Below are positions 1,434 to 63,443 of a stretch of 64,000 nucleotides of DNA, piece after piece. The stretch lies in sequence record PV467749.1, one strand, 5' to 3'. The notes beneath the pieces are model-generated. The model did no database searches, had not been told where the DNA came from, and saw only the letters and a list, made by a program, of their open reading frames with translations. Source of the DNA: a phage. Numbering within the stretch: position 1 is the first letter of the stretch; each line of letters starts with the position of its first letter. The position numbers and the translations under genes are program-made.

Positions 1434-1462
1434 TAACAAAAAAGGCTGACCGAAGTCAACCT
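1434..1462 (-). terminator. rho-independent terminator (hairpin GGTTGAC-TTCG-GTCAGCC + T-run on minus strand)
   Basis: Perfect 7-bp stem with UUCG-type tetraloop followed by T-run; identical hairpin recurs at 9568..9585. Confidence 0.6.
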
Positions 1463-1677
1463 TTATTTTGAAGTTCTTGAACTAATTGTCGTACTTCTTT
1501 GATGTTATGACACTGCTTTACAGTGAAGTAATCATACTTACGACCATAGGTTCTTGGGTCATCACCTTCCATATACTGCTGCACATCAAAGATTTGTAAG
1601 TAGGGATGCTGCATAACACGAATGTTATCACATTGGTAAATCAACATATGTTTAGTCCTCATATTTACACAAGCCAC
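1456..1677 (-). CDS. hypothetical protein
   Basis: 73-aa ORF; stop codon lies inside terminator stem. Confidence 0.4.
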   Translation of the reverse strand: MACVNMRTKHMLIYQCDNIRVMQHPYLQIFDVQQYMEGDDPRTYGRKYDYFTVKQCHNIKEVRQLVQELQNKG

Positions 1678-9026: not shown

Positions 9027-9559
9027 GGACTTTTAATATTGACGGGATTTGAGGAAGGGATTTTTCTTCCCCCCGCACGGAGGGAAATTTGACGCTGATG
9101 GTATCAGAGCTATTGCATTGAAGATTACTCATAACGAGTGCGAAAGCGGGTCATCCTGTTTCTCTCTACTTCAGTTTCATATGACGGTCTACACTTTTAA
9201 ACATAGTGTATCTTCATTAAGTATCTATGCAATCAAATACTTAATGTGAGTACTCAAATTTTGGACGCAACTTTCCTGTACAAAATTCGATAACTCTCCC
9301 TTAGATAATTCGTAAGGTGTTATCCTTATATGTCTATCGAGGAACCACCAGCTATCCTAACGTGGTTCTTTATACAGCCGCATTGCCGTGAGGGGTTCAA
9401 ACTATGCCCACATCTAACGGGTTTCTTTTGCTGTTCGCTACAATGAAAAGCTCATCTATCCTTTACATTTTCAAGTGAAGTAGGGGAAGATTGTCAGTAC
9501 CAGTACTGTCATTGTGATTGTACATAGATCATTGTATCACCATTAATAAATTTGTCCCA

Positions 9560-9586
9560 TAAAAAAAGGCTGACCGAAGTCAACCC
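9560..9586 (-). terminator. rho-independent terminator
   Basis: Same GGTTGAC-TTCG-GTCAGCC hairpin plus T7 run immediately after sigma-factor stop. Confidence 0.65.
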
Positions 9587-9593
9587 TTTAATC

Positions 9594-10559
9594 TTAAAAA
9601 TCTTCGAACTCATAACCTTTTGTCTTAACCATCTTACGCAGTCGTTCCATTGCTTCAGAGTACTTACGGTGCAATGAAGAACGAGCAGTCATGACCTTAC
9701 CCTTCTCATCTTCAAAACCACTCTCAATGATTTCTCGTAGCGTTTCTGGTTCAGAATAAGAACCAATACCATGTACACGTTCAATCAATTCACGGTCTTT
9801 GGCAGATAGGTTACTCATCATTTCTGCAATACTTTGTACCAGTGGGGTACTGACAGTTTCTACGCCTAAGTTGTAATCAGGTTCAACTGAAGTAACAATG
9901 TCAGATAATGTACTTTCTGAATCATTACTCATTTTCATATTCAATGCTACATAAGTGTTATTGTAAGTTAGACAATTCTTAACGTGTTGAATCTCAATAC
10001 CAGTCTCTTTTGACACCATCTCAGGAGTTGGGTATTTACCATGTTTCCTTTGATACTCTTCTACACAACGTTTCACATAAATGTTATTAACACTCATATA
10101 ACGTGGGAAATGCACTAGATAATTAGCATCCGCACTTTCGTTATAGATTGTCATGTACACAGTTGTTGTTGCATATGTAATGAACTTAACATTTTTGGTA
10201 GTGTCGAACGTATGAATTGCTCGCATTAAACCTTCAACACCATAAGAAATCTTATCTTCAAATGGGATAAAACATGTACACTTACGTGCAACACTTACTA
10301 CCATTGGATAGTTGTAGCGAACCAAAAGGTCAATGTTCTTTTCAACGTCAATACCATCACGCACTGCTTGGATGAGCATTTCATTCGTTATCCCTTTAGG
10401 GCGAGTTAAGCTGATACCTGTTTTTGGTTTCTCAAACTTGTGACCGTCATGTTCTTCTTCTTCGACGGAATCAAGAGCCTCTAATACGTTGACTTCTTCA
10501 CTAGCAAAACACTCATCCAGTACTTCTTCAGAAATTGCATTTAAATCAAGCTTTTTCAC
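9594..10559 (-). CDS. RNA polymerase sigma factor, sigma-70 family
   Basis: Region 2-like PMVVSVARK...EDKISYGVEGLMRAIHTFD...KFITYATTTVYMTI and region 4-like LSAKDRELIERVHGI...ETLREI...RKYSEAMERLRK. Confidence 0.65.
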   Translation of the reverse strand: MKKLDLNAISEEVLDECFASEEVNVLEALDSVEEEEHDGHKFEKPKTGISLTRPKGITNEMLIQAVRDGIDVEKNIDLLVRYNYPMVVSVARKCTCFIPFEDKISYGVEGLMRAIHTFDTTKNVKFITYATTTVYMTIYNESADANYLVHFPRYMSVNNIYVKRCVEEYQRKHGKYPTPEMVSKETGIEIQHVKNCLTYNNTYVALNMKMSNDSESTLSDIVTSVEPDYNLGVETVSTPLVQSIAEMMSNLSAKDRELIERVHGIGSYSEPETLREIIESGFEDEKGKVMTARSSLHRKYSEAMERLRKMVKTKGYEFEDF

Positions 10560-10581
10560 TTACTTCTCCTAATGAATGAAA

Positions 10582-11079
10582 TCAAAAACGGTATACATTA
10601 ATATTATCATCGGTATAGATATCATGGTTATGAACATCCATGAAGGTATCAAATACCTTATCAAGAAGAGTATTATACTCTTCATGTACTGCTGCATCAA
10701 GCATGTATTCACCACCACTACCCATAAAGAATGTATAATCATTATGGAGATAATCAATCTTCTTGGTAAACTTACCCTTATTAACGATTAAGTGAATGAT
10801 GTAATCTTTTGACACAAGAACACAGTGACAACTCGCCTTGCGGTCTGGTATCACAGTCTCTTGTGAAATCAAGTATCTCAGTACTTTGTTAATTTCACTA
10901 ACTTCACCGCAAGCACTAAACAGTCGGTCGTGTACATACAATGTTTTTTGTGAAACTACACCATAACTAAGTTTTGGTTTCAACGGGAATAGGTTCAAAA
11001 ATGAACGTTGCTCAGTTGATGTCACTTTTGAATCAGTAAGTAATACTCCCAAGCGTTTATCAATATAAACAGTCGTCAT
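10582..11079 (-). CDS. putative Ntn-hydrolase peptidase (HslV/proteasome-beta-like)
   Basis: N-terminal MTTVYID (Thr after Met) and GSGGEYMLDAAV resembling HslV GSGGxYAxAAA. Confidence 0.4.
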   Translation of the reverse strand: MTTVYIDKRLGVLLTDSKVTSTEQRSFLNLFPLKPKLSYGVVSQKTLYVHDRLFSACGEVSEINKVLRYLISQETVIPDRKASCHCVLVSKDYIIHLIVNKGKFTKKIDYLHNDYTFFMGSGGEYMLDAAVHEEYNTLLDKVFDTFMDVHNHDIYTDDNINVYRF

Positions 11080-12092: not shown

Positions 12093-12151
12093 AAGTTCCT
12101 TACCATTTCCCAGTTTTGATGTAATAATTATATATGACTCAATAACTCACG

Positions 12152-12577
12152 TCAACTGTTTTCCGTACCTTTCTCTGCCATTTTGGTGATGTGCCATTTG
12201 AGTACTGATTTGTGTACCATAAAAAATGTGAATGCAAAGACTGTAATGGCTGCTGAAGTAACACTATTAGATAAAGACCCAAGTTGGATGTTAGTACCTA
12301 AAATAACAATAAATGGATACAACACAATCAATCTACTGTAAGGTTCGTCTCCAGTATCACGGATAAATCCCAGCCTTTCATGATCAGTATCCATAGTGAC
12401 AATTGGACAGAACATAAGTGCAGACATAACAGCAATACCAATTTGTGCTACATTGGCAATTGTAAACCACAAAGGATTTAAACCATATGAAATGTTGTTT
12501 TCAGTACAGTAATATCCAAATGTATTGATTGCACAAACTAAAAATACAAAAATACAAATCTTATTGTATCCCCTCAT
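12152..12577 (-). CDS. integral membrane protein
   Basis: 141 aa, multiple hydrophobic helices. Confidence 0.5.
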   Translation of the reverse strand: MRGYNKICIFVFLVCAINTFGYYCTENNISYGLNPLWFTIANVAQIGIAVMSALMFCPIVTMDTDHERLGFIRDTGDEPYSRLIVLYPFIVILGTNIQLGSLSNSVTSAAITVFAFTFFMVHKSVLKWHITKMAEKGTENS

Positions 12578-24368: not shown

Positions 24369-24389
24369 TATTTTATTTCAAAGTTTGTG

Positions 24390-24694
24390 AGCCATCTGTG
24401 AGTCGAACACAGTACCTAACGATTCGTATAATCTATAGTTTTCACTATAGTACGGACTATATCATCATCCCATAGGGATGCCGGACGCTAATGATGTATT
24501 ACACAGTAAGATCGTACTGTACCATCTAGTCTCTGCACCTTCCCAATACGCTTATTGGGCTTGGCTCAGGATTGTCATCACCATTACGTGTTAAGATTTC
24601 CCTGAATTCATCCAGTTTTTCAATCACCATTACTGATGAAAGTCACCATTGTCGATGAGTCGTTTGCTCTAACCACCGTGAGCTAATGGCCCGA
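24390..24694 (-). tRNA. tRNA-Met/Ile (anticodon CAT) interrupted by group I intron
   Basis: 5' exon 24657..24694 (GGGCCAT TA GCTC..GAGC A AACGA CTCAT) and 3' exon 24390..24426 (AA TCGTT AGGTA CTGTG-TTCGACT-CACAG ATGGCTC A) join into a 75-nt cloverleaf. Confidence 0.7.
24427..24656 (-). other. group I intron (IC3-like) in tRNA anticodon loop
   Basis: Insertion after anticodon U36, last intron nt G; contains GAAGGTGCAGAGACTAGATGGTAC, near-identical to the P7/J8-7 core of known tRNA group I introns as I recall it. Confidence 0.65.
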
Positions 24695-24699
24695 TTTAG

Positions 24700-24938
<239 letters not shown>

Positions 24939-26870: not shown

Positions 26871-26887
26871 ATAGTCTGTTCCAATAT

Positions 26888-59912: not shown

Positions 59913-59922
59913 CTGTTTATAA

Positions 59923-61335
59923 TCAATCTTCAGTTTTTGGCGTGAAGTCAATCTTACGTAGTTCTTTCAACTCATCTTTATAGATGTTCCAAATCAAATC
60001 ATGATTCGACAGGAGATTGTTATATTCATCCATTAAATCCAAGTTATGTTGAATATCAGCTAGTACTGATTGATAATTGTCTTGGGTCCAACGATATGAT
60101 GGGAAGTTTACGATGCTTTGAATATTCTCATCGGTTGCTTCGATTTCAGTGTTTAATGATTTAACAAACTCAACCATTTCTGAACGGTTAGCAAAACCCT
60201 TAACCTTAGCAATCATATCATTATCAAAACATTCTTTGATTAGAATCTTATAACGTACTTCAGCAGCACAATCATCAAGTTTCTTCTCATAGCGTTTCAC
60301 ATAGTATTTGAAACGGAATTCAACAAAGTCCTTAATCAAATCCATTGTGTTATCATAGACTTTAACCTTACCATTCTCACCTAGAACAGTTAGGATTTGT
60401 GTCATCTTCTTATGAATGCCAAAGTATTCAATTACATCTTTCTCCACCCATTTAGCAGATGTTCCGCGTGGCAATTTGATTGTAATATCAATAACATCAG
60501 TACTATCATTATCATAATCACGAATATCACCATCATCGCTCATCTTAATGAGTTTCTCGATGAATTTCTCAATACTGTAGTTAGGTGGTAGACCTGTTAC
60601 TTTAACAGTACTGGCATCAATTACTTGTGCTTTACCATAGAACTCATATTTGTTTTCATCAAGCTTAGTTACGATATCACTTGCACCACATGAAACATAG
60701 TATGGAGTCATTTCTTTTAATGGTTTTTTATCAATAGCACGAATACAGTTATCAATAACATCTTCAATCTTATGTGGTAGAATTGTACTCTTATAACCTA
60801 CTGACATACTATCGTTACCAAACAAAGATAGTGGGATAATAGGTAAAAAGAAACTTGGTTCCATTGTAGTACCATCATAGTTCTCTTTCATTGGAATAAT
60901 GTCAGAGTCACGCAGTACTAACATTTCAGTACTTTTATTCTTTTTAACATAAGTATAACGAGCAGAAGCTGGAGTACTGTTTACTTGTGTACCAAAACCA
61001 CCACGTTTACCAATGAGTGGGTAGTTGTTTACGACTGGTGATGCTAGGTTCTGAAGAGTACCAGATGCAGATGCATCACCGTGTAGATAGATACCATCAC
61101 TAATCATTTTACCAGCACATGATACAGTTTTGATTTCACCACTAACTTTTGAGAGGGTGAAGATTGCTTTACGCTGTGAACTCTTAAGGCCATCAATCCC
61201 AGGGATTGCACGGTCTAGTGTGTACATTGAATATTCTAGTGATGTGGTATTCACATAATCAGAACTGTTATAATCTAGTAGAGTTAGTGTTTGGTTATCG
61301 ATGCTTTGATTTTCGGTTTTTTTACTTTTAGCCAT
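59923..61335 (-). CDS. 52: DNA topoisomerase II medium subunit (T4 gp52-like)
   Basis: YSMYTLDRAIPGIDGLKSSQRK matches T4 gp52 AYAMYTVENRAIPNMIDGFKPVQR; KVKVYDNTMDLIKDFVEFR matches KLQVYDNVVDLIKDFVEVR. Confidence 0.85.
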   Translation of the reverse strand: MAKSKKTENQSIDNQTLTLLDYNSSDYVNTTSLEYSMYTLDRAIPGIDGLKSSQRKAIFTLSKVSGEIKTVSCAGKMISDGIYLHGDASASGTLQNLASPVVNNYPLIGKRGGFGTQVNSTPASARYTYVKKNKSTEMLVLRDSDIIPMKENYDGTTMEPSFFLPIIPLSLFGNDSMSVGYKSTILPHKIEDVIDNCIRAIDKKPLKEMTPYYVSCGASDIVTKLDENKYEFYGKAQVIDASTVKVTGLPPNYSIEKFIEKLIKMSDDGDIRDYDNDSTDVIDITIKLPRGTSAKWVEKDVIEYFGIHKKMTQILTVLGENGKVKVYDNTMDLIKDFVEFRFKYYVKRYEKKLDDCAAEVRYKILIKECFDNDMIAKVKGFANRSEMVEFVKSLNTEIEATDENIQSIVNFPSYRWTQDNYQSVLADIQHNLDLMDEYNNLLSNHDLIWNIYKDELKELRKIDFTPKTED

Positions 61336-63350: not shown

Positions 63351-63412
63351 TTGAATTCCTTTTTAATGTCTCTTTGTCATGCAACATTGTATCATCAATG
63401 CTTTGTTTGTCT

Positions 63413-63443
63413 CAAAAAAATATCGGGACATTAAATGCCCCGA
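63413..63443 (-). terminator. rho-independent terminator
   Basis: Hairpin TCGGGGCAT-TTA-ATGTCCCGA followed by T7 run on minus strand. Confidence 0.55.

Follow-up and report, generated by a model that had tools for sequence, protein, structure and literature searches.

A 64,000-nucleotide stretch of phage DNA (sequence record PV467749.1; hereafter the window) carries at 9594–10559 an open reading frame (ORF) of 321 amino acids (aa), in which an earlier note, made from the letters alone, saw a sigma-70-family sigma factor. The locus raises the question of which promoters such a factor would read, and when. We found that the coordinates and length given for the ORF are correct, that it lies on the minus strand, and that its product is close to certainly a member of the sigma-70 family. 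The phage also carries a promoter class, here called class B, with the consensus tGRGACA-N16-(RTGA)TATAAT. The box at the −35 position of class B varies between phage clades together with the recognition helix of their sigma factors, which suggests that the phage sigma is the most economical reader of that box.

Escherichia phage fEgEco12 (374,733 bp) matches the region of the gene at 99.1% identity and 121Q/PBECO4-type phages match it at 83–85%, and the full window corresponds to fEgEco12 254,765–316,642 in reverse complement. By these identities the source phage is a jumbo coliphage of the 121Q/PBECO4/RaK2 group, not T4. The contrast with T4 drawn in the earlier note does not set the gene apart: the "group 2" jumbo phages are reported to have no RNA polymerase and to carry a gp55-like minimal sigma, a version near cellular RpoD, and gp33 (PMC7824862). 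The sigma gene as such had already been described in annotations and papers on this phage group and is not a discovery; the fEgEco12 protein is mentioned as Gp519 (PMC13070987) and that of phage CBB as CBB_513 (PMC5259590). We found no experimental study of these phage sigma factors in the searchable literature. For whole-genome statistics, the complete fEgEco12 genome was assembled from its annotated segments, and its genes were taken from a simple ORF caller that reproduced annotated test genes.

A divergent member of the sigma-70 family

The gene and its flanking signals are the following:
9594..10559, minus strand: sigma-70-family sigma factor gene, 321 aa, by ORF, profiles and fold
10566..10570, minus strand: Shine-Dalgarno sequence AGGAG, 6 nt upstream of the GTG, read from the sequence
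9561..9589, minus strand: intrinsic terminator GGTTGAC-TTCG-GTCAGCC plus T7, a 7-bp hairpin with a TTCG loop directly after the sigma stop

The start codon is GTG at 10559–10557 and the stop codon lies at 9596–9594; the GTG start is credible because the AGGAG sits six bases upstream. The record of phage UE-S1 carries a terminator annotation at the equivalent place.

The protein comprises an acidic N-terminus (residues ~1–60) that is conserved within the clade, followed by sigma2 (~60–148) and sigma3 (~153–225) domains and a putative sigma4 domain (~233–315). Region 2 is matched by Pfam PF04542 (Sigma70_r2) at residues 79–141 with 37.2 bits (cut-off 24) and region 3 by PF04539 (Sigma70_r3) at residues 162–224 with 44.9 bits (cut-off 25.3), the latter being the strongest Pfam match; both models match 19/19 family members. 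With Pfam Sigma70_r4 the protein gives no hit at E ≤ 10, and only 9/19 family members give one at E ≤ 1. Regions 1.1 and 1.2 have no Pfam match in the protein, and PF00140 is matched neither by it nor by the family members. The signatures of regions 2 and 4 that had been claimed for the protein are therefore borne out in part: a profile check against the sigma-70 region models places regions 2 and 3 above their cut-offs, while region 4 is only weakly detectable and escapes Pfam.

Other searches agree on the family. The NCBIfam models RpoD_Cterm, SigB and RpoS align over residues 64–319 (E ~1e-27 to 1e-21), and PHROG 351, "RNA polymerase sigma factor", aligns over residues 1–318 (E = 3.8e-48, 165.8 bits) as the sole PHROG family matched. 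The best PDB sequence matches are Mycobacterium tuberculosis SigB and SigA and Escherichia coli RpoS and RpoD (1e-17 to 1e-12). An AlphaFold2 model built with 19 homologues has confident domains, with a predicted local distance difference test (pLDDT) score mostly ~75–88 by block, and every top Foldseek match in the PDB is a sigmaS, sigmaA or sigma70 chain in an initiation complex (E from 1.4e-11, ~240–280 columns). The template modelling scores are low (~0.35) because the domain orientations differ. The NCBIfam scores fall three- to five-fold short of the equivalog cut-offs (RpoD_Cterm 96 bits against 354; RpoS 81.8 against 378.7), and the protein is therefore not an orthologue of any host sigma. 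Identity as a gp55-type late sigma was also rejected, as the gp55-like PHROG families match another gene, g336 of fEgEco12.

Full-length homologues, most annotated "RNA polymerase sigma factor", were found by tblastn in ~70 jumbo-phage genomes whose hosts include Escherichia, Salmonella, Klebsiella, Erwinia, Yersinia, Serratia, Cronobacter, Pectobacterium and Xanthomonas; the type found in Erwinia phage Hallingskeid is distinct from the CBB type. Among 1.84 billion representative proteins, 15 clusters match at E ≤ 1e-30, after which only generic sigma-family matches follow (~1e-19 and weaker). By virtue of this drop in score the sigma clade is narrow and discrete.

An insert and an altered helix in region 4

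A profile of the C-terminal 90 residues of the clade matches domain 4 of sigmaS (6fi7_A, E = 1.7e-4), covering region 4.1 and the first helix of the helix-turn-helix (HTH) only; an hhalign comparison of the C-terminal profile with a single RpoD sequence was uninformative (probability 4%). The AlphaFold2 model has C-terminal helices at residues 233–249, 253–263, 274–279 and 293–313 (pLDDT ~82–88), with an inserted loop at 280–292. Alignment with E. coli RpoD and RpoS, both taken from MG1655, places a 9-aa insert (consensus G-F/Y/L-x-D-x-K-G-K) between the two HTH helices in all phage homologues. The recognition helix that follows reads ARSSLHRKYS here and TRERIRQIEA in sigma70, so that E585 is replaced by S, R588 by H and Q589 by R, with R584 retained. 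We attribute the weak detection of region 4 to this insert together with the altered recognition helix. In sigma70, R584 is a determinant for position −31 and E585 and R588 for −33 (PMC2613000).

Region 2 departs from the host proteins as well. The stretch YATWWIRQAITR of the host sigma aligns with YATTTVYMTIYN here; the region 2.3 tryptophan pair W433/W434, part of the aromatic cluster for open-complex formation by sigma70 (PMC2613000), is missing from every phage homologue and is T-T in this one. Sigma70 uses Q437 and T440 for position −12 and H455 and E458 for the TGn motif (PMC2613000); the changes at these positions are Q437 to M, T440-R441 to Y-N, H455 to Y and E458 to V. Retained with respect to sigma70 are Y430, regions 2.1/2.2, region 3 and region 4.1. 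One idea is that sigma factors with a weaker melting capacity need near-consensus promoters; the missing tryptophan pair would fit such a factor, as would the near-invariant −10 and TGn elements of the class-B promoters described next.

A second promoter class in the phage genome

We ran a k-mer enrichment on the fEgEco12 upstream regions without a sigma70 match. Besides Shine-Dalgarno signals, two classes were enriched: a T4-late-like TAAATA box, present in 47/174 upstream regions against 4.4 expected, and a −10-like element, GTATAATG. Motif discovery, which the earlier note had proposed upstream of late genes as a way to an alternative consensus, yielded both a late-type box and the class-B motif. 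From aligned sites, the class-B motif is G(−22) G/A G A C A(−17), followed by a 16-nt spacer ending in R-T-G-A and by TATAAT.

Pattern counts in fEgEco12 are strongly biased in number and strand. The plus strand has 13 copies of GGGAC-N17-TAnAAT and the minus strand has one (0.3 expected), and GTGATATAAT occurs 23 times on the plus strand and never on the minus strand (1.0 expected). Among the 45 intergenic plus-strand TGnTA[TC]AAT sites, 18 have RGACR exactly 16 nt upstream (background 0.0016 per position, binomial P = 5e-39) and only four have TTGACA; neither box occurs at any of the 34 minus-strand sites. These pattern counts and the RGACR test are independent of site selection. Genes behind class-B sites include the gp32-like single-stranded DNA-binding protein (two promoters), the clamp, the DNA-polymerase region, topoisomerase II and many metabolic genes. 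The distribution along fEgEco12 is complementary, class B lying at 50–325 kb and the sigma70 class at 0–25, 250–325 and 350–375 kb.

A scan with a class-B position weight matrix (PWM) gives seven sites in the window, all on the coding strand:
9531..9558, minus strand: class-B promoter GGGACA-N16 (ending GTGA)-TACAAT, PWM score 29.5, beside the sigma gene and before an RNA element
26882–26855, minus strand: high-scoring class-B promoter ~10 nt upstream of tRNA-Ser(TGA) (26844–26755)
31644–31617, minus strand: class-B promoter
32628–32601, minus strand: class-B promoter
38887–38860, minus strand: weaker class-B promoter
56656–56629, minus strand: weaker class-B promoter
63386..63413, minus strand: class-B promoter upstream of the topoisomerase II large-subunit gene (identity from the fEgEco12 annotation)

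With the site at 26882–26855 so close to tRNA-Ser(TGA), the putative middle class may take in some or all of the tRNA cluster. A similar "divergent RpoD-like" promoter has been reported for CBB and GAP32 (PMC5259590). The −35 motif published for CBB, TGAAACG, is not enriched in the window (13 against 8.7 expected), because the box is clade-specific, GGGACA here, and the window is mostly early region.

The −35 box covaries with the recognition helix

The comparison covered seven phages, each with its sigma gene and its copy of the orthologous 41-kb replication module. Extended −10 elements stand at equivalent places in all seven; the box at the −35 position varies, as does the helix corresponding to sigma70 residues 583–589 (TRERIRQ):
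fEgEco12: helix ARSSLHR, box tG(G/A)GACA
PBECO4: helix SRSSIHR, box tG(G/A)GACA
Munch: helix SRTSLHR, box TGGGAC(A/G), one base further from the −10
EJP2: helix NRCTIHR, box tTGAGACA
CBB and Yen9-04: helix SKATLSR, box aTG(A/G)AAC(G/A), the motif published for CBB and GAP32
RaK2: helix VRGTLHY, box tCTGAACA

The same helix goes with the same box. The R..H-R helix pairs with GRGACA even though the sigma factors that carry it are only 36–44% identical between lineages, K..S-R of CBB and Yen9-04 goes with GRAACR, and R..H-Y of RaK2 with cTGAACA. Overall relatedness does not account for this: the RaK2 sigma is nearer to the one studied here (42–46%) than are those of Munch and EJP2 (37–39%), yet both its helix and its box differ. 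The helix varies at the residues associated with −35 recognition in sigma70 (PMC2613000); a redesign of sigma70 −35 specificity targeted these same five positions (bioRxiv 10.1101/2022.11.29.518332).

Host-type promoters upstream and a second, gp55-like sigma gene

The earlier note had also pointed to near-perfect host-type promoters, and these are abundant. TTGACA-N16–18-TATAAT sites with at least 11/12 matches number 37 on the minus (coding) strand of the window and none on the plus strand, against 3.05 ± 1.8 expected from first-order Markov simulations; a loose scan (at least 9/12) gave 89 sites in the window and 93 in shuffles, and hence no enrichment. The sites nearest the sigma gene on its upstream side are:
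11834–11806, minus strand: host-type promoter, 10/12
12127..12155, minus strand: host-type promoter TTGACG-17-TATAAT, 11/12, the nearest strong one upstream of the sigma operon
13521–13492, minus strand: host-type promoter, 11/12

The sigma gene sits in a dense host-sigma70 ("early") region, as has likewise been proposed for CBB (PMC5259590). From this context the gene would be expressed early, driven by the promoter at 12127..12155.

Two repeats touch these signals. The terminator module AAAGG(G)TTGACTTCGGTCAGCCTTTTTT is found twice in the window, at 9561–9589 and at 1441–1464 (minus strand), and fEgEco12 has similar matches of 27–34 nt at ~315–327 kb. The terminator stem includes TTGACT, and at 1459–1430 the same hexamer is the −35 element of the next promoter (TTGACT-18-TATAAT), so that terminator and promoter overlap there. 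The palindrome AGTACT occurs 165 times in the whole window against 34.5 ± 6.2 expected; it is seen as AGTACTG-TATAAT in some early promoters, but (A)GTACT lies inside only 6/37 strong promoters and most copies are elsewhere.

The second sigma gene of fEgEco12 is g336, a neighbour of gp46/47-like genes. Two PHROG families match it: PHROG 12791, "sigma factor for late transcription" (1.4e-152), and PHROG 234 (1.5e-16). It is annotated at 190,974–191,912. The PHROG alignment takes in the product only from residue 36, and at 191073 there is an ATG preceded by the Shine-Dalgarno sequence GGAGAG; the annotated start seems to be ~33 codons too far upstream. A GGGACA-N16-TATAAT site at 190988–191015 falls inside the annotated 5′ end and, given the residue at which the alignment begins and the position of the ATG with its Shine-Dalgarno sequence, is most likely the promoter of the gp55-like gene. 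An exact TATAAATA lies there on the other strand, facing a divergent baseplate gene. Another fEgEco12 gene, g276, is labelled "putative sigma 54"; it is actually an S30AE-family ribosome hibernation factor and not a sigma.

The two-tier transcription programme that had been suggested from the window looks instead three-tiered, with host-type early promoters, tGRGACA-N16-TATAAT promoters and T4-late-like TATAAATA boxes.

A proposed sigma cascade and its alternatives

We propose that an early-made phage sigma acts on the host core polymerase and reads the class-B promoters, as the middle step of a cascade from sigma70 through this sigma to the gp55-like factor; we give this full model a probability of about 0.55. 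The host sigma70 holoenzyme would transcribe the early regions, the phage sigma gene included, and the phage sigma would then compete with the host sigma for host core RNA polymerase. Its altered region 4.2 helix (ARSSLHR for TRERIRQ, after the 9-aa insert) would read GGGACA instead of TTGACA and would direct the core to ~35–45 tGRGACA-N16-TATAAT promoters. The predicted targets are genes of replication and nucleotide metabolism, tRNA genes, four copies of a structured RNA described below, and the gp55-like gene, whose product would then read the TATAAATA-type late promoters. The family assignment, the location of the gene in a region of early type, the promoter class with its statistics and the covariation of box and helix are observed; binding to the core, the timing and the pairing of the phage sigma with class B are the parts of the model that we infer.

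Several points weigh against this model. The extended −10 of class B (RTGnTATAAT) is near perfect, so that host sigma70 could do without a −35 element there, and the box could be bound by another co-evolving phage protein. The −10 and TGn determinants of the phage sigma vary between clades while the −10 stays TATAAT, unlike what a simple residue-to-base code would give. The covariation sample of seven genomes amounts to ~3–4 independent contrasts, and the alignment of the RaK2 box is ambiguous by 1 nt. The class-B PWM was built from pattern-selected sites, which makes the PWM counts partly circular, and the gene calls behind the whole-genome statistics come from a simple ORF caller.

The alternative that survives best, which we nonetheless consider unlikely, is that host sigma70 reads class B through the extended −10, the box being another activator's site or a weakened −35, and that the phage sigma has some other regulon. 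The −10 and TGn of class B match the sigma70 extended −10 consensus, T4 middle promoters do combine a sigma70 −10 with an activator box, and the phage sigma does not conserve the residues at the −12- and TGn-reading positions of sigma70 (PMC2613000). The box, however, occupies the −35 position with a constant spacer of 16 nt and retains the 3′ half of TTGACA, as expected for contact by sigma region 4, and its type tracks the type of recognition helix rather than overall relatedness. Upstream k-mer searches gave only three promoter-like classes, for three available sigma factors. Furthermore, no AsiA or MotA homologue was found among the six-frame ORFs of fEgEco12 (phmmer with filters off; best E 0.4–2.3), a search that very remote homologues could escape; this counts against T4-style sigma appropriation.

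We regard it as improbable that the sigma is mainly a competitor or decoy, which would occupy host core RNA polymerase and shut off host and early phage transcription with little promoter specificity of its own. Such a role would agree with the loss of the W433/W434 pair from the aromatic cluster that sigma70 requires for the open complex (PMC2613000), with a region 4 that is degenerate by Pfam, and with the position of the gene in an early, host-takeover region, for which the same suggestion was made in CBB (PMC5259590). Against it, Y430 and the core-binding region 2.1/2.2 are retained, and the helix and HTH insert are conserved inside each clade while changing from one clade to the next alongside the box, which argues for selection on DNA reading. 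Alternative sigma factors without the tryptophan pair are still functional. That the ORF is a decaying host-derived sigma gene without function, as its scores far under the curated RpoD and RpoS cut-offs might suggest, is effectively refuted by conservation: the ORF is intact, with a Shine-Dalgarno sequence and a terminator, and its full-length homologues, in ~70 phage genomes of at least six genera, form a discrete clade of 15 representative clusters with many invariant positions.

A structured RNA behind class-B promoters

The class-B promoter at 9558–9531 is followed by ~490 nt without an ORF, which hold one further feature:
9033..9524, minus strand: conserved structured noncoding RNA, ~450–500 nt, downstream of the class-B promoter at 9558–9531

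By its position the RNA would be transcribed from that promoter. Four diverged copies are present in fEgEco12 (~59,916–60,390; 110,671–111,080; 195,789–196,240; and ~307.2 kb), each 50–80 nt downstream of a class-B promoter, and RaK2-like jumbo phages carry the element 2–5 times per genome, with copies in 61 phage records. The element of this phage and that of 121Q/PBECO4 agree at ~96% identity, against only 59% for their sigma proteins. In CBB, EJP2 and Yen9-04 one copy lies within a few kb of the sigma gene. Nineteen more copies came from IMG/VR contigs, almost all of them behind the class-B promoter appropriate to their clade.

An alignment of 22 sequences supports 14 helices, with 97.7% of cells paired against 38–44% when the partners are slid. 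Compensatory pairs, in which both sides have changed, number 45 against 6–16 in the slid controls, and the covariation score is 0.453 against 0.05–0.08; 0/500 shuffles reach the observed values. Most copies finish in a covarying hairpin and a T-run. Rfam 15 gave only noise for the element, with several copies and lax thresholds, and we found no description of it in the searchable literature. A middle-phase regulatory RNA, or a promoter/transcript element resembling a T4 origin, are ideas only. With its strong covariation and no known family, the RNA is a separate lead.

Neighbouring genes and a split tRNA

The genes around the sigma ORF all lie on the same strand and are closely packed, including the run from 12092 to 9594. 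The gene next upstream is:
10582..11079, minus strand: HslV-like gene, 165 aa, directly upstream of the sigma gene and apparently co-transcribed with it

Its product matches PHROG 24804 (1.8e-86) and, weakly, PHROG 1040, "peptidase HslV family" (2.8e-6). The gene is labelled HslV in fEgEco12, and a gene of equal length precedes the sigma gene in PBECO4 and UE-S1.

At 24387–24692 (minus strand) a group I intron of 230 nt apparently interrupts the anticodon loop of a tRNA gene. The Rfam group I intron match spans 24433–24747 and begins 55 nt upstream of the tRNA start. If the intron boundaries called by ARAGORN are moved by 3 nt, the 5′ splice site is preceded by U, the intron ends in G and the anticodon loop reads CTCATAA; the homologous site of fEgEco12 has a tRNA-Met(CAT) without interruption.

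Comparison with known systems

The closest known system is the same gene in other RaK2-like ("group 2.2") jumbo phages, namely fEgEco12 g519, 121Q gp167, PBECO4 gp356, RaK2 ORF244, CBB_513 and the GAP32 sigma, which are discussed in PMC5259590, PMC7824862 and PMC13070987. The protein studied here is 99% identical to fEgEco12 g519, 59% to the 121Q/PBECO4 proteins, 39–42% to that of RaK2 and 34–37% to that of CBB. These genes lie in the same early region of small genes with an RNA copy downstream, and the gene studied here is a subclade variant in which nothing essential is different. With E. coli sigmaS (RpoS) and sigma70 (RpoD), the best NCBIfam, PDB and fold matches, the protein appears to have the sigma2–sigma3–sigma4 architecture in common, the sigma4 part being only weakly detectable; it differs in having no Pfam match for regions 1.1/1.2, in lacking the tryptophan pair and in having the 9-aa HTH insert.

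The working proposed for this phage is that of Bacillus phage SPO1, in which gp28 is the middle and gp33/34 the late sigma. SPO1 uses host sigmaA for its early genes and then phage sigma factors for the middle and late ones (PMC13401047). The two phages differ in host and lineage, no close sequence relationship was seen, and the late step here would go through a T4 gp55-like factor. That factor and the TATAAATA-like late boxes are common to T4 and this phage group. The counterpart of the MotA-dependent middle promoters of T4 would be the class-B promoters; the middle step in T4 is sigma appropriation, whereas here it would be a complete sigma, without a MotA or AsiA homologue.

The sigma finding alone adds little, being annotated and published for the phage group. 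What is new here is the assignment of the sigma to a promoter class with covariation across clades, a likely three-step cascade, and the neighbouring structured RNA. Extended to the whole group, the reading is that RaK2-like sigma factors and their middle promoters are co-evolving pairs of sigma and −35 box, all with the HTH insert, within a three-step cascade that includes the gp55-like gene and the structured RNA; we give this extension even odds. If true, these phages would provide a natural example of re-targeted sigma specificity, as sought in engineered orthogonal sigma/promoter sets, and it would be set in phages of ~350 kb that lack a polymerase of their own and apparently rely on successive sigma factors to steer the host enzyme.

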